From positions 8,896 through 72,895 of IMG/VR virus record IMGVR_UViG_3300027833_000035: 64,000 bases of DNA. One strand, given 5' to 3'. Below the pieces are notes generated by a model. The model saw only the letters and a program-made list of their open reading frames with translations, had not been told where the DNA came from and made no database searches. The stretch is from a virus. The stretch's first letter is position 1. Each line of letters starts with the position of its first letter. Below are positions 18,114 to 40,219 of the stretch, piece by piece. The position numbers and the translations under genes are program-made.

Positions 18114-18139
18114 TATTAGTATATTATGATTGGAACACA

Positions 18140-22951: not shown

Positions 22952-23651
22952 ACTTGATTTTTATACATCACACAAAACGCTTATAGAATTACAACCAATT
23001 CAATCTAGAACTAAACCACCATCATGGTGGAAGTCTATTAAGAATTCGTATAGCCAATTTAGGTCTAGGGCTGGTACTAAAGTTCCAACTCCAACGGTTA
23101 AAACTTGTCCTGGGATTGTTGATTATATTCGCAAACCTATTGTTCTTAAACTATGGTCGGATGGTATTTTTAAAGTAAAACCAAACGGTGATGTTGAATG
23201 TATTGAACCCTTACAAGGATCTGGCATACTTGATGGATCTCAACATGAACGTAGACAATTTGGTGATACATTATATCCAAACTGTACTGTATTTAAACTA
23301 CATGGTCCATGGTCAGTTAAATCAAGTGAACGTAAAGAGTTTATGATTACTGAATGTCATTACACTGAAGATTTGCGTAAGCATGGTATTTTAATCTCAC
23401 CTGGGATTACAAACTTTTATGACCAACATACTTTAAACTGTTTTTTAGTATTTCCAATTAAAGACGAAGAATATACTGTAACGCTTAAATATGGTACACC
23501 TATTATGTCAATATATCCAATGCACGAAATGGAACTTGATATTAAAATGCATGAGGTAGCTACACGTCAGGAATGGCAAGAAATACAAAACGTATTCCCA
23601 TCAACCTTTATCGGTCGTTATCACTCCCGGAAACACACACGCGGTAAGTGA
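22932..23651 (+). CDS. Hypothetical phage protein
   Basis: PSWWK...TVKTCPGI.DY...KLHGPW...ISPGI...GTPI pattern; last gene of the plus-strand operon. Confidence 0.7.
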   Translation: MIKKKLKLDFYTSHKTLIELQPIQSRTKPPSWWKSIKNSYSQFRSRAGTKVPTPTVKTCPGIVDYIRKPIVLKLWSDGIFKVKPNGDVECIEPLQGSGILDGSQHERRQFGDTLYPNCTVFKLHGPWSVKSSERKEFMITECHYTEDLRKHGILISPGITNFYDQHTLNCFLVFPIKDEEYTVTLKYGTPIMSIYPMHEMELDIKMHEVATRQEWQEIQNVFPSTFIGRYHSRKHTRGK

Positions 23652-24629
23652 ATGGTGTTCCATATAACTTAGTACACCTTTATCAATACATGTCATTAAA
23701 TTTTTACAATTGGCACAGTTATCAGATTTACTTGAATAAGCCAACTGTGACATGAACTTATTGTCTTTTACCTGAGTCCACGACTCAATATCATTTTCAT
23801 CCTTGACTACAAAATTATCTGTACCAATTAAAGCTATATCATATACGAATGGTGTCCAAAAGAAACGTTCGTTACAATAAGTATAATTTAATTCTAAAGA
23901 ACCACCTTGCGCTTGGTCAATAAATGTTTTAGGCATAAGATCGTCAGCAAAGTCATAGTTCTTCCATTTTTCAATAAGATGTTTTTGAACTTTAGATTTT
24001 GGCGCTCGGAAAAACGATGGATTTAAAGTAAGAATAGAATCAAACTGTTCTTCAACGAGTTTTGACATTTCGAGTACCTTATGGTTCTCAACATCATCAT
24101 TACCCATATTATATACCATATAATAATTTAAATCATCTGTCAACCCGTTTAATATATCTAATTTATATTTAAGTACATTCCAATTAACAGGTGGCTGCAA
24201 CGCTATATTACAATCATACATAAATCCATCAGCTTTTGGAATACTATTTAATAACTCAATAACATTATAATCAATCTTTTCCAATGTTGTAACGAATTGA
24301 ATAGTAGTTACTTTACTTAAACACTCTCGGAATGTTTCATCTTTTAATAACTCTGTAATATTATTATTACCAAATAAATCAGTTGGACCAATATTAATGG
24401 TTGACACGCGGTACCCATTGGTATTAAATAAATCAATGGCATTATTTAATCTATCAAACGATCCCATATTTGAACCGAGTTTATTAACAAAACAACCTTT
24501 GCATTTAAACTCGCAGCCAGATAATACCTCACAATTAAACTGTACTTTGATTTCATGTCCTTCATTAAAGGATAAATCAAAATCCTTATCGGCTTGAGCA
24601 GCACGTTTATTATTAGTAACTATTCCCAT
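23601..24629 (-). CDS. Divergent radical SAM protein, GPTD paralogue group (rSAM-9)
   Basis: EVLSGCEFKCKGCF, IGPTDLF; CANCKNLMTC...C. Start MGIVT assumed. Confidence 0.82.
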   Translation of the reverse strand: MGIVTNNKRAAQADKDFDLSFNEGHEIKVQFNCEVLSGCEFKCKGCFVNKLGSNMGSFDRLNNAIDLFNTNGYRVSTINIGPTDLFGNNNITELLKDETFRECLSKVTTIQFVTTLEKIDYNVIELLNSIPKADGFMYDCNIALQPPVNWNVLKYKLDILNGLTDDLNYYMVYNMGNDDVENHKVLEMSKLVEEQFDSILTLNPSFFRAPKSKVQKHLIEKWKNYDFADDLMPKTFIDQAQGGSLELNYTYCNERFFWTPFVYDIALIGTDNFVVKDENDIESWTQVKDNKFMSQLAYSSKSDNCANCKNLMTCIDKGVLSYMEHHSLTACVFPGVITTDKG

Positions 24630-25767
24630 GGTAAACCTCATCATCATATAAACCAATTACATCTTTATTTAAAATACATTCTTTTCTTCCATCAAATACG
24701 GTATCCATAATCATTGGAACCATTCTATTCACGCATATATTTAAATACTTACAATCGCCGCATTCTTTGCTTCCACTATTTTCAATCTGTTTAACAACGA
24801 TTTCGTCTTTCTTTTTTAGAATATAATCAGTTATATCCGCGTCAGGCAGCATCAACCAACCATTATCAACTTTAAAATCATCTGTATGGATCTGAGCATT
24901 CTCATATATGAATGGAGACAAATACATATCACCGTGGTATATACTGACTACCGAATAATGAAATGCTTTATGTGATACATCACCTTGTAAGAAATGGAAT
25001 TTGTTTTTAAACTTATGTGGATCTGCAGCCAACCGAGTTAGCATATCGTTCCATTCAAATAGTTTATTTCCATGTTTTGCACTATGATTAAAAGAACGTA
25101 CTACTGATGGCAATACTTCAATAACAGTTTCATACCTACTCCTAACAAACTCAATGGCAGGGAATAGTATATCCTCTACACCTTGTACGATATTAGTAGC
25201 CATACTTATTTCAAAGTTTAAAGAACTATTCTTAAACGTTTCAACTCTTTCGTCGAGTGCATCTAAGTATACTTGATCGTTCATTAATCTATTTAAATCC
25301 AAAGCGATTTGTACATCCCATGCTTCAACGACCTTACCCAGCGGTGAGTTTTCAATAGATTTTATCTTACCCTCAATATCCTTTTCAGATAATGATCCAA
25401 GTATAGAACAGTTATGTTGGATATTTCTATTATCCTCAGGCATCATTAATATAGCATCAGCAAGCCTTTGATTATTAATAATCTCTTCTAAATTTTGAGC
25501 ACCATAAAAGTCAGTAGGTCCGATTACAATATCGTCCAATACAACATCAGTTCTATCTTTTAATTCATACGCCAAGGAATGAAACGTTGCGATTGAGTTT
25601 GGGTTCCAATTACCTTTACGTTTAACAAAACAACCCGGACACATATATGAACAGCCTTCAAGTATTTCAAGGTTGACTTGTATTTTATATTCTTTCATAT
25701 TGTCGATTGAAGTAAATTCCTCACCACGTCCACCGTCTACAATATTTTTCCAATCATTATTTAACAT
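24613..25767 (-). CDS. Divergent radical SAM protein, GPTD paralogue group (rSAM-8)
   Basis: EILEGCSYMCPGCF, IGPTDFY, YLSPFIYE; CGDCKYLNIC...C. Confidence 0.85.
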   Translation of the reverse strand: MLNNDWKNIVDGGRGEEFTSIDNMKEYKIQVNLEILEGCSYMCPGCFVKRKGNWNPNSIATFHSLAYELKDRTDVVLDDIVIGPTDFYGAQNLEEIINNQRLADAILMMPEDNRNIQHNCSILGSLSEKDIEGKIKSIENSPLGKVVEAWDVQIALDLNRLMNDQVYLDALDERVETFKNSSLNFEISMATNIVQGVEDILFPAIEFVRSRYETVIEVLPSVVRSFNHSAKHGNKLFEWNDMLTRLAADPHKFKNKFHFLQGDVSHKAFHYSVVSIYHGDMYLSPFIYENAQIHTDDFKVDNGWLMLPDADITDYILKKKDEIVVKQIENSGSKECGDCKYLNICVNRMVPMIMDTVFDGRKECILNKDVIGLYDDEVYHGNSY

Positions 25768-26914
25768 ATGATATATCCTTTAAACGTTTTAGTTCTGGGT
25801 CGTCGTCATCAGTAACCAAAAACTTTTTACGATAACCATTCTTATCGTTTTCAACTGAATAGCCATCCCATTCATACATTGTTTGAGCAGGACCATTATA
25901 GTTGTTTATATTATTTAGCATATTCTCTTTAGGAGCAATGCAGCGATCTACTCCGAGGTAATCCCTTAACATTATTATTTTTCTATTATAACAACTAAAG
26001 AACAACGGACAATCCTCACACTCAGTTCCTTTTGCTCTTTCAATTTGATGTTCAACCATTGGAACAACGTCATTAAAAGATTTTACTTTAAACATATCAT
26101 CGTATATAGCCATGTTCTCATACATGAATGGACTTAAATACCATTCACCACGTTTATAGTTTAACACAGTGTAATTAATACCTGCATGAGAATGGTCTAC
26201 CATAATATTGTTTAGCTTTGACTCTTGGTGCCATGTGCTAAAGTATTCATTAAACTCATCGAGTGTCTTTAAGATTATGTTTGCTTTATGAGAACGAGAT
26301 ACTGACGGAATAAAATCCAATATAGTATCAAAACGTTTTACTGCTTGATCGTGTAATGCTTCATAATCTAATCCATAATCTTTAATATTAACAACAAACG
26401 TATAAGTAACCTCATGCATAATATGTTTATCTATATAAGCTAACATATCTGATATATGTTTCGTGTATTCATCAGTAAAGAATTTATGTGGATTTGTAGC
26501 GATACCAATTTCTATTTCAGTATCGAGGTTAATGTTATCCATAAGAAAATTACAGAACTTTTTAATATCACCATCAATAAGAGTTGACACAAAAGCTAGG
26601 ATAGGAGAGTTTTCATTAATAATATCTACGAGTTCTGGCATTACTTCATAGAAATTTTCTGATGCCAAAAAGTCTGTTGGACCGATTAATATTTCATCAA
26701 CAAGTATTCCTTGGTCAGTAATCGAACGTATAAACTCTTTTGCCATAAATATTTGGCTTTTATCGCTAGCGTTCCCCCGTCTATGTACAAAGCACCCAGG
26801 GCACTTGTGGTGACAACCGTCTAGTATATCCATTTGAATTTTGACGGCACTGACGGGCTTAGTTTGGGTCTCTGTGGTCATCTCATAATAGAGATTATTT
26901 TTAATCAGAGGCAT
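25757..26914 (-). CDS. Divergent radical SAM protein, GPTD paralogue group (rSAM-7)
   Basis: DILDGCHHKCPGCF, IGPTDFL, YLSPFMYE; CEDCPLFFSC...C. Confidence 0.85.
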   Translation of the reverse strand: MPLIKNNLYYEMTTETQTKPVSAVKIQMDILDGCHHKCPGCFVHRRGNASDKSQIFMAKEFIRSITDQGILVDEILIGPTDFLASENFYEVMPELVDIINENSPILAFVSTLIDGDIKKFCNFLMDNINLDTEIEIGIATNPHKFFTDEYTKHISDMLAYIDKHIMHEVTYTFVVNIKDYGLDYEALHDQAVKRFDTILDFIPSVSRSHKANIILKTLDEFNEYFSTWHQESKLNNIMVDHSHAGINYTVLNYKRGEWYLSPFMYENMAIYDDMFKVKSFNDVVPMVEHQIERAKGTECEDCPLFFSCYNRKIIMLRDYLGVDRCIAPKENMLNNINNYNGPAQTMYEWDGYSVENDKNGYRKKFLVTDDDDPELKRLKDISYVK

Positions 26915-27923
26915 ACATATATTCCTTCAATGCGACGCAGTTATCTAATCCTCGCGACTCCATATATAAATGTATATTACGTTCAGCACAGCTCATCATA
27001 TATTTGCAGCCATTACAATCATCAACCTGTTGAGCATATTCAATATTATCATATAAAGTATTTGCATCCATCGTTGTTTCAAAATTTGGAGTTCTTTGAA
27101 TAATAACATCATATAAGAATGGATTTAAATATAGTTTATTATTATAAAAGCTATAGTTTTGGCAGCCATATCCATTAAACTTTGCATCAAAGAATGTATA
27201 AAGATTAAGCCATTTTTTATCAATGTTTTGCTCAACCATTTCGCGTCTAAAGTTTGCTAGGTGCTGTTCCACCTTACCGCGTGCATTCCTATCTGTTAGA
27301 AACGACGGCGTAATTATAACTGGTGCATTATAATCATCAAATATTCGTTGACATAAATCATTATAGCCGATACGTTTAAATACATCTTTATGGTAATTAA
27401 CTCTAAATTGAACTGAACCTAATTCAAACATTTTGAGTTTACGGTTCCAATCGTCTAGTTCTCCATCAAGGTACTTATCTATATCTAAAACGATTTTAAA
27501 ATCAATATCAGGTACTCTGTGAATGCCTTCGTATAAACTCCAAATCTTATCGAGCTTATCCTTTATTTCAGCATATGGTTGAAGTAACGTTGATGTAAAT
27601 CCAACTGCCGATATTTCATAAAGCTTTTTCATATATGGATGGTTCATAATCTCGTAGAAGTTCTCTGCGTCAAAAATGTCAGTAGGACCAACCGTTATTT
27701 CGTCAGGATAATAAGAACCATTAATTAAAAGATTATAAAGCGTTTCTAAATTATCAGCCTTAGTAAGGTTCTTACGTGGAATAAAACAACCTGGGCACGA
27801 CTGAGCGCAGCCATGTAATATGTCTAAGTTTATTTCAGTACGTAAAAAGTCTGTATTAATAGGGCTTTTATTTTCATCATACGTATAGTAACCTGCGTAT
27901 GTTTTATTCAGTTTCACTGTCAT
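26901..27923 (-). CDS. Divergent radical SAM protein, GPTD paralogue group (rSAM-6)
   Basis: DILHGCAQSCPGCF, VGPTDIF, YLNPFLYD; CNGCKYMMSC...C. Start MTVKL assumed. Confidence 0.85.
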   Translation of the reverse strand: MTVKLNKTYAGYYTYDENKSPINTDFLRTEINLDILHGCAQSCPGCFIPRKNLTKADNLETLYNLLINGSYYPDEITVGPTDIFDAENFYEIMNHPYMKKLYEISAVGFTSTLLQPYAEIKDKLDKIWSLYEGIHRVPDIDFKIVLDIDKYLDGELDDWNRKLKMFELGSVQFRVNYHKDVFKRIGYNDLCQRIFDDYNAPVIITPSFLTDRNARGKVEQHLANFRREMVEQNIDKKWLNLYTFFDAKFNGYGCQNYSFYNNKLYLNPFLYDVIIQRTPNFETTMDANTLYDNIEYAQQVDDCNGCKYMMSCAERNIHLYMESRGLDNCVALKEYMYASD

Positions 27924-28740
27924 TAGTATTGGCCTCGGCTTCCGATTGAATATCAGCTTTAATGTCAGCCTCGATTTCCTCTTCAGTTTTTGGTTTTGGA
28001 ATATCAACACTAATAATAAATCCAGGAGGCATCATTGATAAAATGTTATTTGTAATATTAGCTTGTGTCAATACATAAAACAAATCTTTACCAAAGTATG
28101 CTGGCTTATCGTTATACATTTGTTTATTATATTGCATTTTAAATCCAAGCATAGAACAAACTAATAGGAAACCATCCCAACCGTCAGTAAGGAGACGCGC
28201 AACGTTTGGACCACACACTGTTGGTTTATCAACTACTGTAATTTGGTCAACTGCGTCTTTTACTTCAATTTCAATTGCTTTGTTTTCATCTGATAAATTT
28301 TCGTGGAATTTACAGATTACGAATGGAATAAGTTCAGCCATGTTATTACAAACTTCATCAATCAAATCAATATGTTTATCAACAAAATCGTGTAACTGAT
28401 CTTTACTAAATATGTCAAGTAATTGCTGTTCTAAACCATTAAACTCATATCTATATCTAGCTTTAATAGCCATCACAACAAACCGTGATAGGAAAGGGCT
28501 ATCAATAATAAAGTCTGATTTAATATATTCCAACAACAAGTCTTCATCGACTTGAGCAAAAGTTGTTTTAAAGTTAGTGTTTGCTAAATAAATTAGAATA
28601 TGTTTAGCTGACAGCTTTTCTTTAGATGCCAAATAATCTACCCATAAAACAAAATCTTCATCTTCTTCTTTTACCTTATAGATCTCAACTAAATTCTGAG
28701 GTGCTAATGGTAAAGTATATATATTTTTTTCTTCACTCAT
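27904..28740 (-). CDS. Hypothetical protein within the rSAM operon
   Basis: 278-aa helical-looking ORF with an acidic tail, overlapping the downstream rSAM gene. Confidence 0.75.
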   Translation of the reverse strand: MSEEKNIYTLPLAPQNLVEIYKVKEEDEDFVLWVDYLASKEKLSAKHILIYLANTNFKTTFAQVDEDLLLEYIKSDFIIDSPFLSRFVVMAIKARYRYEFNGLEQQLLDIFSKDQLHDFVDKHIDLIDEVCNNMAELIPFVICKFHENLSDENKAIEIEVKDAVDQITVVDKPTVCGPNVARLLTDGWDGFLLVCSMLGFKMQYNKQMYNDKPAYFGKDLFYVLTQANITNNILSMMPPGFIISVDIPKPKTEEEIEADIKADIQSEAEANTNDSETE

Positions 28741-28755: not shown

Positions 28756-29859
28756 TTATATCAATGGGTATTTATGAATTAAATATGGTATTCTGTTTTG
28801 GCGTTTTGAAAAGAACTGAACATCTGTATTGATTAACGCTAAGTCTTCTCTAATATTATCTGTGTTAAAGTTTCTTTCTAAAACCTTTTTAACGATAGGG
28901 AACACATTATTGATTTCAGTATATAGATCCATGTATTCCCAACCATCCGCTGTAGTATCAGCTTTGTTTTGGTGAACCGCAATAAAATCAGCATCGTCTT
29001 TAACTTTATTCCATAACTCTTCTAATAAGTAAAACGCAAGTGTGTAGTTAGATTTATTAGCAGCATTTACATATACATCTTTAAAGAATTGTTTTTTGTC
29101 TGTAGCCCAATCATTCGCGTCAGTTGCATTGGCATTCATATAATCAATGACTGACATAATGTATGCTGAATAGTGACGACGTGAAGTAAAGTGTTCCATA
29201 ACATCTCTTGCCATAACTGGTGAATGGATAGTAAACTTCTCAACGATTAATTCTGAAATCGGTGTACATGGATAAAAATCATTTAAGAAGAACAATAAGT
29301 CATAACTAAAGTTTTTACCATTTTGATATGTAATTACCCAAGGTGTTTCGCCTTCAGCATTTAATAAAGTATTCGTGTGGTTTCTAACATCGTTATAAAC
29401 TGTTGAGTCACTCATTAATGATAATACTAAATCTTGGTTAATCACTGCTTCCATATAATGGGCAGTCATAGAATTAATTGTTGTTGCATCGGCATCAGGG
29501 TAGAAACCAGAGGCTGTTAATAATCCAGCGGTATATTTAGCAAATACTTTAATCATATCCTCTTCGTCTGTAAACATAAGGATACGTTTATCACTGTTTT
29601 GAATATAGTCAGCATTAGCAACGTCTTCCCATTGCTCAAAATCCAATAGTGAAGCAGCATTAGAACGTGCGTTATTTGCCAACAATTCGTATTCAGCAGG
29701 CTGAAGGAATGCATCTTCAATATCAGGATGAACGATTGTAATTCTTCTTGGCTCAGCAGTATGATAAAAAGAATTTAATTCACCAATTACTGTTTCAACG
29801 TTTTGCGTATTTGTAATATACTTTTTATTATTTAAGTAATATAAACTCTGTCCAATCAT
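28756..29859 (-). CDS. Hypothetical protein within the rSAM operon
   Basis: About 367 aa; start MIGQSL overlaps the upstream stop (ATGA). No motif recognised. Confidence 0.75.
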   Translation of the reverse strand: MIGQSLYYLNNKKYITNTQNVETVIGELNSFYHTAEPRRITIVHPDIEDAFLQPAEYELLANNARSNAASLLDFEQWEDVANADYIQNSDKRILMFTDEEDMIKVFAKYTAGLLTASGFYPDADATTINSMTAHYMEAVINQDLVLSLMSDSTVYNDVRNHTNTLLNAEGETPWVITYQNGKNFSYDLLFFLNDFYPCTPISELIVEKFTIHSPVMARDVMEHFTSRRHYSAYIMSVIDYMNANATDANDWATDKKQFFKDVYVNAANKSNYTLAFYLLEELWNKVKDDADFIAVHQNKADTTADGWEYMDLYTEINNVFPIVKKVLERNFNTDNIREDLALINTDVQFFSKRQNRIPYLIHKYPLI

Positions 29860-31031
29860 AATTTTGCTCCTAATTTTTCTATTGCGTCGTCGTTCCAAGT
29901 GAAATCGTATGGATTATATTCAGCAAGAACATCTTTGTTCAATACACAGCCATTAACATTTAATGATTCTTGGGCTTCAAAGATCAGTCTACTTGCGCAG
30001 GCAACTGCGAATTTACAGTCAGCACAGTCTTTTACTTTACTCGACTTATTTATACCTTTTGTTACTAATTCATTTTTACGATCTAATATTTCTTCGAATG
30101 TTAAACCAGTAACATCTAAATTTTTATTACCTAAGAAAAACGCTTGTTCATGTAGCATTACATTTAGGTGTGTGGTTGGACCATTTTCTCCTGGAACAAT
30201 TGTAAGTCCAACAAAGTTAATTGAGTTACAATAAAGATTAGCCATTGACATAACAGTTTCTTGTGCGTTATCTTTATCAATAACTCTACCAAGGAAATCG
30301 TTCCATCCAAACAAATTCTTTCTTTGAACCAATTGTGAGTTTGCCCTAGAAAAAGCAGGGTTCATTTCTACGATTGTTTCATATTCATTTACAGATTTTT
30401 GGATAATCTTATTGTATGTTTCTTTATCAATCTTTTTGCCAACAACGTTAGAAGCCTGAAGTGTCCACGACCAATCCATTTGTTTTGGCGTATTGTTTTT
30501 AAAGAACTCTACCTTTTCCATAACGTTATCAAAGTATTCATCATCATTTAACATCTGCTCTACTCTGCCGATTGGCATAATAAATTCGATAATCATTTCG
30601 CGGCGATACTTATCTTCATCGTCAAGTACAGCAAAGATTTCTTTTACTTTATCCATAGTTGCTAAATCAAATTTAGCAGGTGCCGCGATACGAGCTCCGG
30701 TATGTTCTCTCATAATCTCTTGGACTACTGAGTTATTTAATACTGACTCTGTATTCTTGGCAGTGAAAAAGTCTGTTGGTCCAATAACGAATTCTCTTAG
30801 GTTAAGGCCAGTTCTTTTTACACCATCGGCAAGTTCTTTTGCTCTATCAATAATTTGTTGGTTCATAGCAGGGTCAATGTTTTTATCAACGAAACAACCT
30901 AGGCAGCCGTGATTACATCCAGCCAAAACTTCCATTTGAATTAAAACATCAAACTTAGTAGCATCCGAAGGTGTTAGACTTTCTGGTCCTGAGTACCTCA
31001 TTTGCTTACAATATGATTTTTGCATTGACAT
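29856..31031 (-). CDS. Divergent radical SAM protein, GPTD paralogue group (rSAM-5), adjacent to the putative substrates
   Basis: EVLAGCNHGCLGCF, IGPTDFF; CADCKFAVAC...C. Start MSMQKSY lies 1 nt after the stop of 31033-31413. Confidence 0.85.
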   Translation of the reverse strand: MSMQKSYCKQMRYSGPESLTPSDATKFDVLIQMEVLAGCNHGCLGCFVDKNIDPAMNQQIIDRAKELADGVKRTGLNLREFVIGPTDFFTAKNTESVLNNSVVQEIMREHTGARIAAPAKFDLATMDKVKEIFAVLDDEDKYRREMIIEFIMPIGRVEQMLNDDEYFDNVMEKVEFFKNNTPKQMDWSWTLQASNVVGKKIDKETYNKIIQKSVNEYETIVEMNPAFSRANSQLVQRKNLFGWNDFLGRVIDKDNAQETVMSMANLYCNSINFVGLTIVPGENGPTTHLNVMLHEQAFFLGNKNLDVTGLTFEEILDRKNELVTKGINKSSKVKDCADCKFAVACASRLIFEAQESLNVNGCVLNKDVLAEYNPYDFTWNDDAIEKLGAKL

Positions 31032-31032
31032 G

Positions 31033-31413
31033 TTATCTTCTTCCTCTCGAACTGTGACAACTACTATGGCAGCTGGCATGACAGTAATAAGCATTGATTG
31101 TTCGGTTACTCATTCTGCCTTCTATTAAGTCGACTGTTCTTCTAGTTAAATCTTCTAATGTATCAACAATATCTTGTGCGTAAATTATCTGACCTGAATT
31201 AATGCCACCATCTACATAGTTATTATATACATAATAGTTTGCATTCACAAATTCAAATCTATGATAATGCCATTGGCCTGTGGTATAACTTGTAACACCT
31301 GTACCATTAACATATGCGTTAACATAAATTCCAACATTTCTATCAAACGTTCTTAATTGTTGTCCACCATACGTCATTACATACGAATTAACGTCACCTC
31401 TATCCATAGTCAT
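31033..31413 (-). CDS. Putative rSAM substrate/precursor B (126 aa, C-terminal YYCHASCHSSCHSSRGRR)
   Basis: Paralogue of the upstream gene; TAATG overlap with it; Tyr-rich with a CHxS repeat tail. Confidence 0.8.
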   Translation of the reverse strand: MTMDRGDVNSYVMTYGGQQLRTFDRNVGIYVNAYVNGTGVTSYTTGQWHYHRFEFVNANYYVYNNYVDGGINSGQIIYAQDIVDTLEDLTRRTVDLIEGRMSNRTINAYYCHASCHSSCHSSRGRR

Positions 31414-31793
31414 TAGCGGCGACCTCGCGAGCTATGACACGATGAGTGACAACTTGAATGGCAGTAATATGCGTTAATAGTTCTATTTGATAATCTTCCT
31501 TCAACCAAATCAACAGTCCTCCGTACGACGTTACGAATTGAATCAATAACATTACCTGAACGAATAATTCCGCCGGTGTATATACCACTAGACATATACC
31601 CATTATAATAAGAATATGAAGCGTTTACAAACTCGAACCGTGTATAATGCCATTGGCCTGTGGTATAACTGTATCGTCCACCGTTTGCATATACATAAGC
31701 ATTAATATAAAACCCAACGGTCTTATCAAAGGTTCGTAATTGTCGACCACATTGAGTCTGTAAACTACTATTTAACTGTGCATAACTTGGCAT
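31413..31793 (-). CDS. Putative rSAM substrate/precursor A (126 aa, C-terminal YYCHSSCHSSCHSSRGRR)
   Basis: Starts 1 nt after the tail-fibre stop codon; three tandem CHSS units. Confidence 0.8.
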   Translation of the reverse strand: MPSYAQLNSSLQTQCGRQLRTFDKTVGFYINAYVYANGGRYSYTTGQWHYTRFEFVNASYSYYNGYMSSGIYTGGIIRSGNVIDSIRNVVRRTVDLVEGRLSNRTINAYYCHSSCHSSCHSSRGRR

Positions 31794-31794
31794 A

Positions 31795-34700
31795 CTATAC
31801 TTTAACCTCTACTTCACCATTTTCACTATCACTTATCGCGATACCAATTATTTCATAGCTATTTATACCCGGAGTACCATAGTCAACTCCCTTAGCTTTA
31901 CCATCACCAGCAGGGATTACCCATTGGCCTTTCTTAACATCTTCACTTACTAAACATGGGATCCGACCTTTAAGAGCAATGAACGGATTCATTAATGCTT
32001 TTGTAGAAGTAGATCCAGGCTCAATTCCCATGTCGTTCATTTGAACAGCAGGGTTTGTTGATATGACACCAGCAAGAGGCATGCCCGGTTCCCATTTAGT
32101 AACTTCTGAGTCACCTTCAATGTTAATACCCATAACAGTAGCATTTTCATATACAGCATCTGCAGAATATCTCTCTGCAAGGTCAGCCCATCTTGCTGAC
32201 GTAGCTGTACCAACATATAAACCACCATTATCAATATACGATCTATCAGAACCATTTTGTCTAAACTGACAAATACGGTTTGAGTTACCACCAGAAGTAA
32301 TATAGAAACGGTTTGAGTGGTATTCAATTTTACCAACATCGTTTCCTGGGTTACCTGTCCAAGATTCGTTACCAGATTCTTCAAATCTAATACATGGTGA
32401 ATAACCATCTTGGTGTCGTGTTCTTAACTGCCATTGACCCGCAGCATTCAAATCGCCTGACCATGTTCTGTCACCATACATCCAACGACACATTGTACCG
32501 TTATATGTTGCTCTAAGTTGTAGAGACATAGACGAAGAGTTATTGTTACCAGTGATAGCATAATACTGACCTTGGTAAGAATAAGCGTGTACACCGGTTT
32601 GCTGGTTGTAAATACCCTCACGTTGACCGTCGTTACGGAACCAATTACGAGCATATATTTCATTGGCACGAACATAATCATTGAAGTTAGAACCTGATGA
32701 TGGATTACAATAATAACCAGTATTATCTCTGTCGTAGAAGATTGGCGCACGGAATGAGGATGATGCATAAGAGTTGCCATCACACATTGCTTGGAAGTAC
32801 CAACCTGAAATACTATCAGTAGCATTACCGTGCATCCCAACATAGAAACCTGTTGACCCTGTAGTGTTATTATTATTTGAGTCAAGGTTAAAGAATATGT
32901 CGTGGTATGAGTTAAATCGTAAATCGTCTGATACACCTCCACCACTGTCTCTGGAAGATATAGAGTGATAAGTACTGTCGTTACCATAGAATGTAATAAA
33001 GTCACCACGATCTCTTGCGTTTAACTGATCCCATTCAATCGTACTCATTTGCGAAGTAGATGCTGGGTTTGTATAACGATTTGTATCGTTTGAGTCGTAG
33101 AAGATTGGAGCTCTTAATGAACTACCAGCTTGTAATGAGTTATTTACATAAACGTCGTTAGCACCAAGTGGATCAGAACCGTTATTGATTGACATGACCT
33201 GAGTATTCATTGTATAGTCATCGTAGAAACGCATACCATTATAACTAGCATTTGCACCCATCTTAATACCAGTGTGGAAAGCAATTCTTAGATCCGGGTA
33301 TGGGTAAGTCCAACCACCACCTTCACGATAGATAGCGTAAGCAGTTGATTCATTACTTCCAAAGTACAAACCAAATTGGTCATTTTGTGAAACATCATCT
33401 TTGTGTACAAATCTATTTGCTCTAATGTCGCCAGCAAAATTGTTATCACCGGCTGGATTTAAAAAGTATGCAGAGTTGTTACGATCGTAATAAGTATTGG
33501 CATATATATCACCATATACTTCAGTTGTACCACTTCGAGTTCTTAGTGCCCAGCTACCAGATTGATTAAGGAAACCAATATCATTTGAGTTGTTTGCATA
33601 TACATAGCCTCGAATAGTACTTCCATTATCATCTCTAAATCGTATACCATTAGCAGAGCCACCGCCTGCAACGTTCCAATAGTCATCGTTGTCTGAATAG
33701 AAATGCTGACCTGTTGCAGTGTTATATAAACCACGACCATTTGTATCGTTACGGAACCAACCATCGTTATAAACTTCTGAACGAATATCAAGTGTATGCA
33801 TTACTGATGTTGAAGCAAAGTCACCGTAATAACCTGTACTGTCACGGTCATAATATCGTCCAGAGTAAGTTCCACCTGTTACGAATATGTTACCATCACC
33901 ACGAACAAGAAGATTTGTTGTACCTGATAAGCCGCCATCTCTAAACGCAATGTCTTCACCGCCTGATGTAGCAATAATTAAGTGAGCATCATTAGTATCA
34001 GTAGCTTGGATATAACCACGAACATTGCCAGCATTTGTAATAAACTGAGCTTCACCACCGTCAGCAAACTGAATAACATCTACTTTTGATGTACTTGATG
34101 GATCGACGTAGAAAGATGTATCGTCTGAGTCAACTAATCTACTTGCATAGAAGTATGAACTTGTACCGCCGCCTGGGTTTGCGTTATAGATAGCAATATC
34201 AGAATAAGAAGAATAGGCTGTACCTGAGTTCCATGACTGTTGCCATAGACGCATACCACGACCAGACTTTTTAAACATCAATAAGTTATCTGAACCGCCA
34301 GAAGAGTCTGTGTAAGATCTTAAGTGTAAGTAATCGGCATATGGTGCAGTGTTATTATTGTTCCAAGATGTGAAACCAAACGTTAATCGACCTGCAGTAT
34401 CTTCGTTAGGTTCAATAATACGGTTATCTTTGCGTAATAATGATCCTGCATAACCATTAACATTACCTTGGATTACGTTATCAACTTGTAATGTTAATAG
34501 TCTCGAAGTACCATTACCGTCAATTTTGTATGCAGTATTGTCACTGTCATACCAAATTGGTGAACGTAACTGATTAACACCTAGGAAGAAACCATCTTTA
34601 GTAGACGCTTGTTCTTCACCATTATAATAAAGTTCAACATCGCCATTTTGACGGAAGATTTGTGCCCATTCGTCGTTAGTATCATTAAAGATACCAGCAA

Positions 34701-37700
34701 CGCCAGCTCCACTTGACATGAATACCCAGTCATCGTTAATAGCATAACCTGCATAACCACCTTTATTACCAGTTACACTGATTGAGCCATATGTACCAGT
34801 AGTTGCATCTAATTGATATGTTGCTCCACCAAACTGAACAGCGTTTGCACGAAGAATATTTGTAAGAGATGTTGAGGCTGGATCTAAGTAATAAGCGTTA
34901 TCGTCTGAGTCATAGAACCTGCTTGCATAAGAACCGTTAAGCGCTGTATGCGTACCCGATACAACAACATTACGAGACATTGCCCAGTCACCGTTAGCAT
35001 CAGTCCAGTTACTATCTGTAACAAATCTTAGTCTGTCTGGGTTAGTACCCTCTGCCATTCTAAGCATTTGAGTTCCACCAGCAACCAACTGCATATCGTC
35101 AGCACCAATAAATCTGATATATGTATCAGTATCGCCATTATGTCTAATATATTCGTTAGCACGTATTTCGTTAAATACAGATGTTGAAGCCGGATCAGCA
35201 TAGTAAGCTGAGTTGTTAGAGTCATAGAACCGTTGAGCATATGAATAACGTCCAGCCCAAACATCACCGTCAGACTCGACACGTAAACGATATACACCAT
35301 TACCAGCACCAGTTGTGAATTGTAAATTACCGCCTACGTTAGTTGCGAAGTCATTTGGTGACTCATAAATTTGCCATAGGTTTCCGCCGTTCCATGCTAG
35401 ACCTTCAGATGGTCCTGGATCGTTGAATGTTAATTTGTTTACGTTATTAATATTACCGTTTGTCCAATCCCAGTTACCTCCGACTTTAGATGGACCTTTT
35501 GGTTCAATGTAATAGTTAGTGTCGTTAAGGTCTCTAAACCTACCAGCATCAATAATATTTGCTGAGATGTTATCTGCAGAAATATCACCAGTAACAGTAA
35601 GATCGTTACCGATTGTGGCATCGTTAACAATAGTTAATCCTGCAGCTTTTAAGCTTGATTGAGCATCAGTTCTTTTTAGAATTGGTGGACCAAACTCACG
35701 TGTTGCACCATTTGGAGCATAATTCATTAATGAGATTAATCTAACAAAACGAACGCCTTCACCATCTGAACCATTATATGGTGTGTGAGTTGTTGGTACA
35801 ACGTGTTCACCTGAATATTGAGTCCAGCCTGTGGCGGTATGATTGATAGCAGATGCCGCAAAGTATGAAATACCATCATTAGTAGCAATTGGATTTTTGT
35901 TTTTATCGTATCGTCTAACACCTAAGTAGAATAAACCGCCAGTACCACTAATGCGTCGAACAGCTTGTTCTGCGTAAATTGTTTCGCCAGGTTCTACAGG
36001 AATAAAATCAGAGTCAAAGCTTCTATAACCATTTGATCTTAATGCGTAACTTGATGCGAATGGACCGTCACCGTTTAAAACATATTCACCGGTACTAGTT
36101 GTTGCATTATTTTCAACACCCTGCATTGGTTGAATAACACGTTTATCCCAGTAGTCTGAAGCATCAAACATTTTGAGATCAGCAAGGCCGGCGCCATATG
36201 ATTTAAGTAATCCAAGGTTCTCATTACCACCGTTAAGAGCAAGAGATCCAAATATACCAGCGCCATAAGCTTGTATATCACCATTTTCTGAGAACCAAAA
36301 ACGTTCACCAATATTATTAAACGAAATACCCATCGCAGAACGAGAGTTTCTTGTTTTATGGAATATAGATGGGAAGTTAGCATCAGCAGCTGTATTTTGT
36401 AAAACAATTAAACGTTGTTGAGTAGACTTAACCTCTAATGGATAAGTTGTATTATTAAAGATTGCGCTATCACCAGCTTTAACTGATTTAAGTCTGGATT
36501 GACCAGCAAGATCGGCATAGAATGCAGAGTTATCTAAATCATAGAATATTGGAGAACGCATACTGTTTGGAGCAGAACCATAACCATTTTCAGCACCAAT
36601 TTGATGAATGTTATTAGAATATAATCTTGTGAAGTTATTTCTGTTAGCAACCAATGACCATTCGTTATCTGTTTCGTTATACAGACCCATCTCTGTAGCA
36701 CCACTGGATATAAAGCCCCAGTCATTACTAATCATATAACCTGCATAGCCATCTCTTTCGCCTTCAACCATGATAGTCCCTTTAGGACCTGATGGTGAGT
36801 CGATAGTTAGGGAACTGCCGTCCATTTGGATTTGATTTGTTCGAACAACATTTAAAATAGATGTTGAAGCAGGATCTAAATAATAAGCATTATTGCCTGA
36901 GTCATAATAACGTGGAGCATAAACATCAAGGTTAAAATCAGCAGAGTTATCATCAATGTTTAATCTCTCTGTATTATTGATAAACAATTTATAAATGCCA
37001 GCTGCAGAGAAACCAAAGTATGTATCTGCATCACCGTTATGTCTAATGTAATCGTCAATGTCAATTCTATTCATTACTGATGTACCAGCAAAGTCACCAT
37101 AGTATGCGTTATTATTATAATCGTAATAAGTAGGGAAGTATGCCATGTCATTGGCATCAGCAGCTGATATGCCGCCATTGAAATTCACTCTCTTATTGAA
37201 TAAGAATAAAGCTCTATCAGTATCAAATTGTGCTGAACCAGCAACCTTAGATCCAATATCTAAATAACCAGTTGGTGTTGTGAACCTATGAGCATTACTT
37301 GTATTTGGTTCAAACTTAAAAGTTCCACCAGCATCAGAGAATATTGGGGATCGCATATCTGTAGCAGCTTCTGCATATGTTGTATATACATCAAGCTGCG
37401 CGGTTCCGCCGGCAGTAAATATAATTTGGTCAGCGCCAAATCCAATTTTAGTATTAGTATCACCGTCGTGTATAATTTCACCGACGAGACTTATGTTATT
37501 CATTCGCGATGTACTAGCAAAGTCACCGTAATATAAAACATCATTTGCATCTAGGTACTGAGCGAATGAAGCATTACCTGTTGACGTAAGTGTTTTATTA
37601 TTTCTAACTCTAAGATTGTTGGCATCGTTCATGTAGAAACCGCCGCCTTGACCAAAGCCAAGTTCATCCATTCTTAGGAATGTAGCAGTTCCATTACCAA

Positions 37701-40173
37701 CAACATATGCATCATCAGTACCATTAAGTTGTAATGATCCATCTATGTGAAGTTTACTATCTGTTTTTGTACCACTATTTAATAACGGAGTATTATCGTG
37801 TTGAGTATATGCAACTGAGTCATTACCAATTGTAATATCCCCAGTACTTAACATTGCTAATCTTGTTGATGCACCACTATCGTAGAAGTAAACTCCTTGG
37901 TCTGCATCAGATACAAAGTACGCATTCTTTGAACTATCACCTCTAATAGAGAACGCCGCTGCGCCATCTGCTAAGAATTCTGACCAATATCCATTTTTAC
38001 CTGAGAATGGATTACCACCCATATCAATTCTGTTAAGTGATAATAGTGATAGTCCACCAGTATTACCAGCAATTGAAATTGTAGGGTTAGTAGTCGCACC
38101 TAATCCAGCATATGGCGCGATCATAATTCCGCCAGTACCTGAGTTATTATCTACAAGGTTAAAGTCTGTACCTGCGCCAACATTAATACGTCCACCAACT
38201 CTAAGCGAGTCAGCAGCACCAGTTTGACCAAGATCCAAGAAGTTTGTTGTTCCTGATGTATCATAATATACTGGTGCTTTCATATTGTCAACGGCTGTTA
38301 CGCCAGTATCTCTTACGAATAATCTATCACTACCACCAGTTCTAACTTTAAACTCGTTTGCGGAAGAGAATGTAATTAATGTATCAGCATCACCTTGGTG
38401 AATAATGTCACCTTGTAAACTGATGTTGTTCATTACTGATGTACCAGCAAAGTCGCCGTAATATGAGTTATTATCAGAGTCAACAAACTGTGGTGCAAGA
38501 ACATTATATGTAAATGTCGCGTTTGTAGCATTAAGAGTTAATCGTGCAACCCCATTTGTTGTAAATGTCTGTACATCTGTACCAAAAGAAATTTTATTAT
38601 TAGTATCACCATTATGGAATAAGTCGTCATTAATACCAAGGCTATTAAATACTGATGAACCAGCTGGATCGGCATAAAAGTTATTATCGCTTGAGTCAAG
38701 GAACCTTGGTGCGATTAAATCAACTGATGATGTAACTGCTGTATCAGTGATTGATAATCTAACTGAGCCACCCGTTGCTAAATCAATTTGATTAGTACCA
38801 AATGATAACTTAGTATCGGTATCACCGTTATGGAAAAGATCGCTATCAATTCCAATTGTATTCATTACTGATGTACCAGCAAAGTCACCAAGATACGCAT
38901 TATTGCCACTATCTAAATAACGAGGAGCTTTTACATCAACTAACGCTTCAACTGCAGTGTTATTAATTAATAGCCTTTGCCCTGCACCAGTATATACTTC
39001 GAATTGATTAGCAGCTGGGAAATTAATATACGTATCAGCATCGCCATCGTGTGATATAGTTCCAACAAGTTCAATATTATTTAACCTTGATGTATCGGAC
39101 GGCCAAGACAAATATGTATTATCATCAGAGTCTAAAAATTTATCAGCAATAAGATTACGGCCAACAGTCCAATCACCATTTAAATCTGAATATGTTTGAT
39201 AAGCAAAGACTCCATCAAGGAAACCAATTTTACCGTTATCAGAAGAAAGAACTCTATTGTTACCCGCACCGCGCATAGTAAGTAGGGCCGAACCAGTTCC
39301 GTTACCGATAGCAACCGTTCCTTCAAACTCTAAATTACCCGTAGCAATGTCATTAACATCTGAGCGAATAAACTGTGAAGCTTCTAATCCGTCAACGGTA
39401 TCAGCATCAAAGTTATTACCAGAACCTTCGTCGTCTGTTGTAATAATACGACCAATGTCTGTACCATTTGATATTAGTTTAAACCAATCGTCTGTCTCGT
39501 CCCATTGTAAAGATGATGTTGCTAAACCTCCACGAAGAACTTCCCAACCAGCGTTTTCTGTTGGTGTACCAGTAGTAAAGTTTGAATTGAGTGTAATAAT
39601 ATTATCAGCAATTAAAACCGTTTCTGATTGAACCTCGACGCGTGTACCTTGTACTGTAAGGTTACCAGTGATAATATAATCACCGTCCATCGTATCATTT
39701 TGATCCGACCTTACAAAACTTCCACTATCAATTCCATCAAGTAAATCGGCATCTAAACCAGATCCTGTGCCGTCGTTTCCAGCGTACCAAATATCTTCGC
39801 CATTAACTGTTGGAGCACGTTTAAAATCAATACCAGTTGACGTAAATGCTAAATCAATAGAACCACTATATGTAACAGCAATTCCATCAGTACCATTATT
39901 AAATGTAATACCGTTATTGCCATTGTCTATTGAATAATCATTTGGTGTTGGATTTGAAACATTTAAACTGTTTGCGTTACCAATAAAGCTGGTAATTACT
40001 GAACCATTGCCGCCATCGTTTGTTATTGTAACTGGTATACCTGAAGAATTACTAAAATCAGCTGTTCCTGATACTTGTAATTTATTTGTGCCGTCGTCGG
40101 ATGTTGTGCCGATTAGAACGTTATTCTCAGATTGAAGTCCGTTCTTTACTATGAATTTCTTATCATTTGCCAT
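31795..40173 (-). CDS. Long tail fibre/adhesin with repeated modules and a C-terminal autocleaving chaperone-like domain
   Basis: GSGLDADLLDG fibre motif; about 19 copies of an AP.FYDS.N..YY.DPASTS module; C-terminal SARWADLAERY...GVISTNP...IALKGRIPC resembles the peptidase G2/phi29 gp12-type domain. Start MANDKK with SD. Confidence 0.85.
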   Translation of the reverse strand: MANDKKFIVKNGLQSENNVLIGTTSDDGTNKLQVSGTADFSNSSGIPVTITNDGGNGSVITSFIGNANSLNVSNPTPNDYSIDNGNNGITFNNGTDGIAVTYSGSIDLAFTSTGIDFKRAPTVNGEDIWYAGNDGTGSGLDADLLDGIDSGSFVRSDQNDTMDGDYIITGNLTVQGTRVEVQSETVLIADNIITLNSNFTTGTPTENAGWEVLRGGLATSSLQWDETDDWFKLISNGTDIGRIITTDDEGSGNNFDADTVDGLEASQFIRSDVNDIATGNLEFEGTVAIGNGTGSALLTMRGAGNNRVLSSDNGKIGFLDGVFAYQTYSDLNGDWTVGRNLIADKFLDSDDNTYLSWPSDTSRLNNIELVGTISHDGDADTYINFPAANQFEVYTGAGQRLLINNTAVEALVDVKAPRYLDSGNNAYLGDFAGTSVMNTIGIDSDLFHNGDTDTKLSFGTNQIDLATGGSVRLSITDTAVTSSVDLIAPRFLDSSDNNFYADPAGSSVFNSLGINDDLFHNGDTNNKISFGTDVQTFTTNGVARLTLNATNATFTYNVLAPQFVDSDNNSYYGDFAGTSVMNNISLQGDIIHQGDADTLITFSSANEFKVRTGGSDRLFVRDTGVTAVDNMKAPVYYDTSGTTNFLDLGQTGAADSLRVGGRINVGAGTDFNLVDNNSGTGGIMIAPYAGLGATTNPTISIAGNTGGLSLLSLNRIDMGGNPFSGKNGYWSEFLADGAAAFSIRGDSSKNAYFVSDADQGVYFYDSGASTRLAMLSTGDITIGNDSVAYTQHDNTPLLNSGTKTDSKLHIDGSLQLNGTDDAYVVGNGTATFLRMDELGFGQGGGFYMNDANNLRVRNNKTLTSTGNASFAQYLDANDVLYYGDFASTSRMNNISLVGEIIHDGDTNTKIGFGADQIIFTAGGTAQLDVYTTYAEAATDMRSPIFSDAGGTFKFEPNTSNAHRFTTPTGYLDIGSKVAGSAQFDTDRALFLFNKRVNFNGGISAADANDMAYFPTYYDYNNNAYYGDFAGTSVMNRIDIDDYIRHNGDADTYFGFSAAGIYKLFINNTERLNIDDNSADFNLDVYAPRYYDSGNNAYYLDPASTSILNVVRTNQIQMDGSSLTIDSPSGPKGTIMVEGERDGYAGYMISNDWGFISSGATEMGLYNETDNEWSLVANRNNFTRLYSNNIHQIGAENGYGSAPNSMRSPIFYDLDNSAFYADLAGQSRLKSVKAGDSAIFNNTTYPLEVKSTQQRLIVLQNTAADANFPSIFHKTRNSRSAMGISFNNIGERFWFSENGDIQAYGAGIFGSLALNGGNENLGLLKSYGAGLADLKMFDASDYWDKRVIQPMQGVENNATTSTGEYVLNGDGPFASSYALRSNGYRSFDSDFIPVEPGETIYAEQAVRRISGTGGLFYLGVRRYDKNKNPIATNDGISYFAASAINHTATGWTQYSGEHVVPTTHTPYNGSDGEGVRFVRLISLMNYAPNGATREFGPPILKRTDAQSSLKAAGLTIVNDATIGNDLTVTGDISADNISANIIDAGRFRDLNDTNYYIEPKGPSKVGGNWDWTNGNINNVNKLTFNDPGPSEGLAWNGGNLWQIYESPNDFATNVGGNLQFTTGAGNGVYRLRVESDGDVWAGRYSYAQRFYDSNNSAYYADPASTSVFNEIRANEYIRHNGDTDTYIRFIGADDMQLVAGGTQMLRMAEGTNPDRLRFVTDSNWTDANGDWAMSRNVVVSGTHTALNGSYASRFYDSDDNAYYLDPASTSLTNILRANAVQFGGATYQLDATTGTYGSISVTGNKGGYAGYAINDDWVFMSSGAGVAGIFNDTNDEWAQIFRQNGDVELYYNGEEQASTKDGFFLGVNQLRSPIWYDSDNTAYKIDGNGTSRLLTLQVDNVIQGNVNGYAGSLLRKDNRIIEPNEDTAGRLTFGFTSWNNNNTAPYADYLHLRSYTDSSGGSDNLLMFKKSGRGMRLWQQSWNSGTAYSSYSDIAIYNANPGGGTSSYFYASRLVDSDDTSFYVDPSSTSKVDVIQFADGGEAQFITNAGNVRGYIQATDTNDAHLIIATSGGEDIAFRDGGLSGTTNLLVRGDGNIFVTGGTYSGRYYDRDSTGYYGDFASTSVMHTLDIRSEVYNDGWFRNDTNGRGLYNTATGQHFYSDNDDYWNVAGGGSANGIRFRDDNGSTIRGYVYANNSNDIGFLNQSGSWALRTRSGTTEVYGDIYANTYYDRNNSAYFLNPAGDNNFAGDIRANRFVHKDDVSQNDQFGLYFGSNESTAYAIYREGGGWTYPYPDLRIAFHTGIKMGANASYNGMRFYDDYTMNTQVMSINNGSDPLGANDVYVNNSLQAGSSLRAPIFYDSNDTNRYTNPASTSQMSTIEWDQLNARDRGDFITFYGNDSTYHSISSRDSGGGVSDDLRFNSYHDIFFNLDSNNNNTTGSTGFYVGMHGNATDSISGWYFQAMCDGNSYASSSFRAPIFYDRDNTGYYCNPSSGSNFNDYVRANEIYARNWFRNDGQREGIYNQQTGVHAYSYQGQYYAITGNNNSSSMSLQLRATYNGTMCRWMYGDRTWSGDLNAAGQWQLRTRHQDGYSPCIRFEESGNESWTGNPGNDVGKIEYHSNRFYITSGGNSNRICQFRQNGSDRSYIDNGGLYVGTATSARWADLAERYSADAVYENATVMGINIEGDSEVTKWEPGMPLAGVISTNPAVQMNDMGIEPGSTSTKALMNPFIALKGRIPCLVSEDVKKGQWVIPAGDGKAKGVDYGTPGINSYEIIGIAISDSENGEVEVKV

Positions 40174-40211
40174 TCGGTTCACTCTCCCCAGTTAGGCTTT
40201 ATTCTTAAATC

Positions 40212-40219
40212 TATTTATA
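40212..40219 (-). promoter_or_regulatory. T4-type late promoter upstream of the fibre-precursor-rSAM unit
   Basis: Exact TATAAATA on the minus strand, 38 nt upstream of ATG 40173. Confidence 0.75.

Follow-up and report, generated by a model that had tools for sequence, protein, structure and literature searches.

A tail-fibre gene linked to genes for small Cys-His-x-Ser-tailed proteins and radical-SAM-like enzymes in a marine T4-like virus

Layout of the locus

We analysed a 64,000-nucleotide (nt) stretch of viral DNA, positions 8,896 to 72,895 of the 72,895-bp IMG/VR record IMGVR_UViG_3300027833_000035 (hereafter the window), in which a long tail-fibre gene is followed by genes for two small proteins, preA and preB, that end in the same Cys-His-x-Ser repeat, and then by genes for proteins resembling radical S-adenosylmethionine (rSAM) enzymes. 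An initial annotation of the window had proposed that the small proteins are substrates of these enzymes, and that substrates and enzymes are coupled to the fibre under one late promoter. The layout and junctions it named are all present on the minus strand, from 40219 down to 23601. The window contains T4-like genes for head, neck, sheath, tube and terminase, followed by a big island of fibre-like genes, and its portal protein is 53% identical to those of Sinorhizobium phiM12-type phages and 49% to those of cyanomyoviruses. This arrangement agrees with the 'host recognition cluster' of pelagimyophages, where radical-SAM cassettes were remarked on, without explanation in the available part of the source (PMC7029224).

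The unit is preceded by the T4-type late-promoter motif TATAAATA (40212..40219, minus strand), which lies 30 nt before the fibre GTG and 39 nt before an ATG, with a motif at the corresponding position in relatives whose sequence includes the whole fibre gene. The fibre open reading frame (ORF; 31795..40182) encodes a 2795-aa fibre-like protein with a PHROG tail-fibre match; it starts at GTG 40182, with an in-frame ATG at 40173, and ends in a TAG stop (31797-31795). A single base (31794) separates this stop from the ATG at 31793 of preA (31413..31793; 126 aa), whose TAA stop (31415-31413) shares a base with the preB ATG (31413-31411) in a TAATG overlap. preB (31033..31413; 126 aa) is a paralogue of preA, with 62% identity and an identical tail pattern, and its stop (31035-31033) is followed by one base (31032) and the ATG at 31031 of rS5 (29856..31031), a divergent radical-SAM-like enzyme with the motifs CxxxCxGC, GPTD and C-terminal CxxCx5C...C. 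Two conserved genes whose families we did not recognise come next: X380 (28756..29859), whose ATG (29859) overlaps the rS5 stop, and, after a 15-nt gap, X278 (27904..28740). X278 overlaps rS4, the first of four rS5 paralogues (rS4, rS3, rS2 and rS1; 23601..28010) arranged with head-to-tail overlaps (14 nt for rS4/rS3, 11 nt for rS3/rS2, and a further overlap for rS2/rS1), the last gene ending at 23601. All of these are on the minus strand. A convergent partner cassette on the plus strand (18080..23651) encodes a cupin, four rSAM/SPASM-type enzymes (pR1-pR4) and the proteins p132 and p239.

At the junctions, a Shine-Dalgarno-like GAGG lies 9-12 nt before the next gene start, within the codons of the invariant R-G-R-R that ends preA and preB (CGA GGT CGC CGC at 31416-31427 and AGA GGA AGA AGA at 31036-31047, both on the minus strand); for preA, such a GAGG is provided by the codons of the fibre's conserved E-V-K-V end (GAG GTT AAA GTA).

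preA and preB are small folded proteins with an invariant tail

In an AlphaFold model built with an alignment, preA has a helix / β-hairpin / helix body (helix 4-19, hairpin 23-34/43-54, helix 79-100) with a mean predicted local distance difference test (pLDDT) score of 85, followed by a low-confidence, disordered tail (pLDDT 53-57) with the pattern CHxSCHxSCHxSRGRR. Across 24 aligned homologues there is no variation in the C, H and S of the three C-H-x-S units, in the final RGRR or in an L-R-T-F near the N-terminus, and in 95 aligned sequences C/H/S and RGRR are near-fixed. The same (CHxS)3RGRR tail was found in all 47 viral loci and in two cultured jumbo phages, as the end of ORF068 of Ralstonia phage RSL2 and of gp170 of Agrobacterium phage Atu_ph07. 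Variability is concentrated in hairpin residues 25-48, with insertions after residues 38-40; the N- and C-terminal helices are conserved.

Of 457 candidates in a protein search with pre, 170 were relatives at E ≤ 1e-3, and nearly all were of marine metagenomic origin. Neither preA nor preB matched any Pfam or NCBIfam family at E ≤ 0.01, and their only PHROG match (phrog_35144) has no function assigned. The preA model found no fold match in the PDB (best Foldseek E 0.27), in BFVD (best Foldseek E 0.095) or in a wide VIA search, whose best hit (Z 5.6) was an unrelated protein. Fused, longer forms of preA yielded one weak match (E 1.7e-3). Neither the region (by blastn) nor preA or a 195-aa tail protein (by tblastn) matched anything in the phage collection; RSL2 and Atu_ph07 were probably missed through the low-complexity filter and the shortness of the shared tail.

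No protease or exporter/transporter genes were found by Pfam among the cassette proteins, and on reading the sequences we saw no signal peptide or peptidoglycan-binding domain in preA or preB. Because the model has a confident folded body of ~105 aa, the variability is focused on the hairpin and neither protease nor exporter accompanies the genes, pre appears from the model to be a protein rather than a peptide; a classical precursor of a peptide that is made on ribosomes and modified after translation (RiPP) has instead a short unstructured leader plus core, served by a protease and exporter. In related loci the first pre gene is always closest to preA and the second to preB, so that the A-type/B-type order is kept and the pair must be old, with both copies retained.

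The fibre ends in a predicted autochaperone

A model of the last 230 aa of the fibre reached pLDDT values of 81-97 over residues 101-230, and its best VIA match was 3gqh_A, the C-terminal fragment of phi29 gp12 (Z 12.8, root-mean-square deviation 2.7 Å, 110 aligned residues, 24% identity; next best Z 10.2). Foldseek returned the same chain (E 5.1e-4). Model residues 102-230 align with chain residues 692-853, the match beginning at 692, the first residue of the solved phi29 fragment. The domain begins at about fibre residue 2667 (W-A|D-L-A-E), and in the alignment the phi29 fragment starts at the conserved W-[AS]-D-L-A-E. By sequence, Pfam PF11962 (Peptidase_G2 IMC) matched 16 of 28 aligned fibre-end homologues (best E 5.2e-6).

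On this model, the last ~129 residues of the fibre are an autochaperone of the phi29 gp12 type. The gp12 C-terminal domain is an autochaperone that is cleaved off, and by analogy the fibre domain is probably cut off at W-A|D-L-A-E. The fibre end resembles gp12 (PF11962; PDB 3gqh, 3suc) in fold. The two differ in that the window's own copy has no Pfam match at E ≤ 1 and no PDB sequence match, with either a single sequence or a profile, and in that self-cleavage is here a prediction. We know of no rSAM system beside phi29 gp12.

The T-even protein gp38 is a chaperone in T4 and the tip adhesin in T2, T6 and S16, and the initial annotation had placed preA and preB in this adhesin/chaperone slot. 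The positional part of that proposal stood: like gp38, preA is encoded by a small gene right behind the fibre gene (1-nt gap), with late-promoter motifs and a locally hypervariable loop in the body of the protein. The rest did not, since preA and preB have no Pfam match to gp38, no solved gp38 adhesin was among the Foldseek or VIA matches of preA, and the two proteins form a paralogue pair, carry a tail that is presumably an rSAM target and follow a fibre with its own predicted C-terminal autochaperone, which would make a separate gp38-like chaperone unnecessary. A complex prediction with three copies of the fibre's last 230 aa plus preA scored 0.00 and is uninformative on binding.

Linkage to the fibre end across relatives

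The same ~130-residue domain (...W-A/S-D-L-A-E-x-Y...A-L-K-G-R...E-V-K-V) forms the end of the gene preceding the first tail gene in 38 of 46 readable loci; the gap between the two genes is -1 to +12 nt, and the remainder of the preceding gene varies from 258 to 3196 aa. Starting from the fibre end instead, 74 of 78 loci had readable downstream DNA; the tail gene lies directly behind in 49 of these 74, and in one it comes after cupin-X-pR1. In six close relatives without a tail gene behind the fibre, the pR cassette converges on the fibre 3' end (6/6), and in all seven close relatives without a directly following tail gene an rSAM cassette abuts the fibre 3' end, convergent or collinear. The persistent linkage of substrate and enzyme genes to the fibre gene is borne out by direct adjacency in 38 of 46 loci and by the abutting cassette in those seven close relatives. 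Of 18 distant matches, the 14 that we examined had the domain alone, with no cassette.

A degenerate DNA pattern for the tail identified 121 stretches, from which we estimate ~180 in the whole viral collection. They encode 132 unique tail proteins that fall into a shorter (124-140 aa) and a longer (170-309 aa) class, a relative of X278 lying directly behind in 23 of the 132. Upstream neighbours were readable for 93 tail proteins: a pR1-type rSAM gene in 44, an autochaperone-ended fibre in 21, a sister pre/tail gene in 21 and another gene in 7. Because pR1 is the commonest of these, the family-wide partner of the tail protein is pR1, with its cupin, and not the fibre; the 'fibre to small pre pair' arrangement is the habit of one clade. 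The census of 80 loci contains 24 with the order fibre-to-tail and 23 with fibre-to-cupin-to-pR1-to-tail, giving 47 of 80 with an autochaperone-ended gene upstream.

In RSL2 and Atu_ph07 the tail gene also stands right behind the cupin and a pR1 homologue (44% identity). Cupin, rSAM and 2-oxoglutarate (2OG) genes are listed as accessory genes in RSL2-, FLC6- and S13-type jumbo phages in the parts of two reports available to us (PMC8066314, PMC11898562). These gene sets and the pelagimyophage cassettes (Zaragoza-Solas et al. 2020, PMC7029224) resemble the present locus in their kinds of genes and their setting in a genomic island, but the same available parts name no substrate, Cys-His tail or fibre link. 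More widely, in the accessible portions of the literature on phage radical SAM/SPASM/RiPP, HxsA/HxsB, jumbo phages and Atu_ph07, we found no account of the tail or its link to a fibre.

A pattern scan of genome contigs gave three real matches, all from one metagenome bin, and two short motif matches that we regard as spurious. The three contigs (L127, L128 and L129) belong to a Rhodobacteraceae-labelled bin, and their pre genes are 49-64% identical; because their coverage differs, they are probably phage contigs binned with a bacterium. On one contig (L177/L178), cupin-pR1 is followed by a tandem pair of long tail proteins, of 309 and 260 aa, and tandem duplication of the substrate thus occurs in the long class as well.

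Late-promoter motifs and transcription

The motif TATAAATA, which we take to be the T4 late promoter consensus, occurs 15 times in the window against 9.93 expected (9 of 100 shuffles reach 15), with 14 copies on the minus strand. Because 12 of the 15, compared with the ORF list, sit 24-89 nt upstream of a start codon, their placement suggests that the motif acts as a late-promoter signal in this phage.

Two further copies lie inside the fibre-rSAM unit. One (31867-31860, minus strand) is in the 3' coding end of the fibre gene, in the codons G-I-N-S and 67 nt before the preA ATG, and is a candidate for the pre/rSAM cassette's own late promoter. Among 47 related loci, 17 have the motif again at -72 to -77 relative to the first pre gene, and in distant loci the motif is located 34-45 nt before the tail gene. 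Its codons, GGT/GAT-ATA-AAT-A(GY/CN), preserve the motif exactly in 14 of 15 distinct sequence contexts; among the synonymous codons of this phage, the share of ATA (Ile) is 18%, of AAT (Asn) 56%, of GGT (Gly) 65% and of AGY (Ser) 22%. That the motif is kept despite the rare ATA and AGY codons suggests selection at the DNA level in addition to the protein level, to which we attach no probability since the contexts are related sequences. The other copy (30054-30047, minus strand), within rS5 and 149-188 nt before X380, is also written in G-I-N codons and recurs ~1740-1808 nt after the first pre start in 24 of 37 loci (L001-L037).

These conserved internal motifs speak against the single late promoter of the initial annotation. 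That annotation also saw no terminator in between, and over 23000-42500 we found no excess of terminator-like sites (9, against 10.1 expected from shuffles) and none at a gene junction. With several T4-type late promoters and no terminators between them, the fibre and the cassette would be co-expressed late, and not from one promoter. In the partner cassette, the probable ATG of the cupin gene (18140, in frame) has TATAAATA 27 nt upstream, at 18106-18113. Over 17471-18140, the cupin gene and a 2OG-Fe(II) oxygenase gene diverge from a 105-nt spacer that holds two copies of TATAAATA back to back, at 18067-18060 on the minus strand and 18106-18113 on the plus strand.

Six metatranscriptome runs contain 32-37% of the sampled words of 29000-33000, and four of them, from four studies, were aligned to 23000-42500. 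Contigs from 95-97% relatives in these RNA libraries cover 28-30 of 30 bins of this region, and the fibre/preA junction is crossed by contigs in two of the four runs (X17 record 17, 31119-32070; X18 record 24, 31111-32257). A third contig (X15 record 3) covers X380-rS5-preB-preA and has its end at 31825, which is 35 nt beyond the internal motif, a weak hint of an internal promoter. Together the contigs agree with read-through as well as with an internal start. Over 32114-33415 in the fibre gene, coverage by RNA-library contigs from relatives becomes sparse and the contigs end in unlike sequence, consistent with a segment of the fibre that varies between strains and lies just upstream of its conserved end; we did not use this dip in depth as evidence of expression.

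A homologue with the same tail is in virions of Atu_ph07

Published proteomics of Atu_ph07 lists gp170 (31.89 kDa) among the virion-associated proteins, with 8 unique peptides and 35.16% coverage (Supplementary Table S5, PMC6102473). The upstream gp176 and gp177 are in the same list, from which the cupin gp172, the rSAM proteins gp171, gp168 and gp165, and gp169 are absent (PMC6102473). The mass that we recomputed for the tail-bearing ORF is 31.89 kDa, and those of gp176 and gp177 also match the table, so the gene numbering agrees. The presence of the small protein in virions, a check proposed in the initial annotation, is in this way answered by published data for one homologue. Although a 32-kDa protein, gp170 turned up in gel fragments 1-9 and peaked in fragment 1, the position of 127-139-kDa proteins (PMC6102473), a migration that fits a high-mass species stable to sodium dodecyl sulfate and heat.

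The gp170 data bear on whether preA and preB are assembly factors like T4 gp38/gp57, which fold or trimerise the fibre and are then discarded. The position right behind the fibre gene and the tight coupling would suit such a role, but the fibre brings a predicted autochaperone of its own, no resemblance of preA or preB to known fibre chaperones was found, gp170 is in the virion, and up to nine rSAM enzymes would be left unexplained. We regard this explanation as improbable.

The radical-SAM-like enzymes and their possible substrate

The paralogues rS1-rS5 share 20-25% identity and the motifs G-C-x3-C-x-G-C-F (each of the five has the invariant CxxxCxGC), GPTD and, at the C-terminus, CxxCx5C...C. 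Their Pfam scores for Radical_SAM (17.1 bits; cut-off 29.5) and Fer4_12 (17.8 bits; cut-off 22) are both below cut-off, as are all their PHROG and NCBIfam matches, and an rS profile reached at best E 0.052 in the PDB. Similarity between rS and pR is confined to the cluster stretch (hhalign 87%). Among the pR proteins, pR2 exceeds the Pfam Radical_SAM cut-off of 29.5 (39.7 bits) and pR1, pR3 and pR4 fall below it; with the SPASM domain model, scores of 25.7 and 23.1 bits narrowly miss the cut-off of 27, and CxxCx5C...C is conserved. pR1 and pR2 match DarE (1.9e-14), DynA (1.9e-12), anSME (1.9e-10) and HxsB (1.6e-8), all far below the curated cut-offs, and a PDB sequence search with pR1 returned no match. 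X380 and X278 had no usable ESM Atlas match. The pre/rS and cupin/pR cassettes, on opposite strands here, are collinear in six relatives (L008, L027, L029, L034, L036 and L037), and we conclude that they belong together.

Compared with known rSAM/SPASM maturases (DarE, DynA, anSME, PapB, CbpB and others), pR1 and pR2 have the CxxxCxxC and a SPASM-type C-terminal Cys cluster, and rS1-rS5 the related CxxxCxGC and CxxCx5C...C. The phage proteins differ in scoring far below the family cut-offs, in having no fused RiPP-recognition domain (the cluster starts at residues 17-39) and, for rS1-rS5, in having GPTD in place of the usual GGE motif. Judged by gene neighbourhood, the radical-SAM enzymes probably modify the Cys-His-x-Ser tail. 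That the last repeat, C-x-x-x-R, is an anSME-type formylglycine site is speculation.

The closest parallel is the bacterial HXS defence system, in which the rSAM proteins HxsB and HxsC, with HxsD, mature the HxS-repeat protein HxsA, adding 8 Da on SHRSS; according to the available part of the report, the system blocks phage DNA entry and the repeats are essential (Li et al., Nat Commun 2026; PMC13128918). As described there, it resembles the phage module in having a whole protein with tandem His-x-Ser repeats, dedicated rSAM enzymes and small helper proteins. The preA and preB tails contain three invariant H-x-S units, each after a Cys, and by analogy the phage system may work like HXS, with rSAM chemistry on a repeat in a whole protein. 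It differs in that an invariant Cys precedes each His, in that there are exactly three repeats, placed at the extreme C-terminus and followed by RGRR, and in that the genes belong to a phage, are driven by predicted late promoters beside fibre genes and encode neither a signal peptide nor a peptidoglycan-binding domain.

preA and preB might themselves be exclusion effectors of the HXS kind, HxS-repeat proteins that block DNA entry by competing phages (superinfection exclusion). Such a role would account for the tandem H-x-S repeats with basic residues, the several rSAM enzymes and the small partner proteins, and there are weak HxsB/HxsC matches. However, pR1 scores 33.8 bits against HxsB (equivalog cut-off 370) and pR2 23.3 bits against HxsC (cut-off 267.9), weaker than their matches to DarE and DynA, and the HxsA model TIGR03979 does not match preA or preB at E ≤ 0.01. 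Late promoters beside structural genes suit exclusion poorly, the homologue gp170 is in virions, and we give this role little credence.

In a RiPP-like or cofactor-like pathway, the body would be a long leader or scaffold from which the heavily tailored tail is excised to act as a small molecule, such as a metal binder or a redox-active compound, the place of the gene beside the fibre being incidental to the hypervariable host-recognition island. A core that is invariant while the rest varies, the unusually large set of tailoring-type enzymes (nine rSAM-like proteins together with a cupin and a 2OG oxygenase) and the metabolic genes that the island also has, by our own annotation and in the available part of PMC7029224, would suit such a pathway. 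Protease, exporter and immunity genes were nonetheless not found by Pfam, the body has a confident fold with conserved N- and C-terminal helices, the linkage to the fibre end persists through four gene orders, and the gp170 virion peptides cover 35% of that protein and hence include the body. We consider this pathway unlikely. The view in the initial annotation that the module does not make a secreted peptide gains from the same folded body and missing protease and exporter, and from the finding of gp170 in Atu_ph07 virions without its rSAM neighbours.

Finally, the Cys-His tail might do no more than bind a metal or Fe-S cluster, for instance as an rSAM scaffold or carrier, with the true substrate elsewhere (the fibre, or a host-envelope sugar or lipid). 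The Cys/His spacing is typical of metal ligands, there are sugar-nucleotide genes in the island (13613-14413), and no modification has been shown. Against this, Ser and RGRR are as invariant as Cys and His; moreover, pR1 and pR2 resemble SPASM peptide/protein maturases rather than sugar-modifying rSAMs, and the tail gene is immediately behind pR1 in 44 of 93 readable cases. We think this poorly probable.

A proposed role for the tailed proteins in the virion

We favour the reading, with a probability of roughly 0.55, that preA and preB are late-expressed virion accessory proteins of the fibre, matured by the phage's rSAM enzymes. Transcription would proceed from several T4-type late promoters without terminators between; the 2795-aa fibre would fold with its own phi29-gp12-type C-terminal autochaperone, and preA and preB, their genes packed directly behind, would be translated in coupling with it. 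The (Cys-His-x-Ser)x3-Arg-Gly-Arg-Arg tail would be the substrate of the phage rSAM enzymes, with the cupin and pR1-pR4 from the other strand as core enzymes and rS1-rS5 with X380 and X278 as accessory ones, presumably installing cross-links or side-chain conversions at Cys, His or Ser. The matured proteins would become part of the virion, with a place on this fibre or close to it the most likely, and the enzymes would stay in the cell.

A more specific version, which we offer tentatively, is that preA and preB resemble small adhesins, their hairpin being hypervariable, and that the rSAM-modified (Cys-His-x-Ser)3 tail attaches them to the fibre end after release of the autochaperone, by covalent cross-links or a metal-binding staple. 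An adhesin role is compatible with the variable hairpin of the model, and this version, if true, would also account for the 32-kDa tail protein of Atu_ph07 running mainly in the top gel fragment. The device would then be the first enzymatically cross-linked receptor-binding one in a virus, and phages would chemically finish part of their host-recognition apparatus with rSAM enzymes of their own.

Several observations weigh against the favoured reading. The link between enzymes and substrate rests on gene neighbourhood, modification has been observed in no family member, and the preA body has no fold match to any adhesin by Foldseek or VIA. No autochaperone-ended gene was seen upstream in 33 of the 80 census loci; 23 of these have <440 nt upstream, but ~10 had room and showed none. 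The jumbo phages have no autochaperone fibre end, and RSL2 ORF068 is annotated as hypothetical only, whereas ORF065 is annotated as a virion structural protein. The RNA-library contigs are strandless, and DNA carry-over is possible. Similarity between preA and gp170 is limited to the tail and gene context, so the virion evidence transfers to preA only by inference. The Atu_ph07 stock was PEG (polyethylene glycol)-purified, and its list includes RecA-like, single-stranded-DNA-binding, terminase and ribonucleotide reductase proteins (PMC6102473).

rSAM maturation is known for secreted peptides, cofactors and, since 2026, one bacterial defence protein; to our knowledge it has not been described for any virus-particle protein, and the module points to such an undescribed enzymatic finishing step. 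It is widespread, occurring in abundant marine T4-like and soil jumbo phages, within their islands for host recognition. Should the tail protein prove to be a modified part of the fibre, enzyme chemistry would be a new layer in the building or stabilising of receptor-binding structures, with new rSAM reactions on a defined nine-residue Cys/His/Ser pattern. The question is open to direct test, as cultured phages such as Atu_ph07 carry the system and virion proteomics exists.

Other features of the window

The last genes of the two opposite cassettes, rS1 and p239, overlap tail to tail by 51 nt (23601-23651), with no terminator-like site between them. A 4014-aa structural protein (51804-63848) with PHROG matches to giant virion and fibre proteins is probably the VrlC-like baseplate protein that bounds the pelagimyophage host-recognition island. 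A 1566-aa fibre (46682-51382) has many collagen-like repeat matches and an end like that of a long-tail-fibre distal subunit, different in kind from the autochaperone end of the 2795-aa fibre. Inside the structural region, 13613-14413 encodes a cytidylyltransferase-like domain fused to a mannose-6-phosphate isomerase / cupin C-terminal domain.

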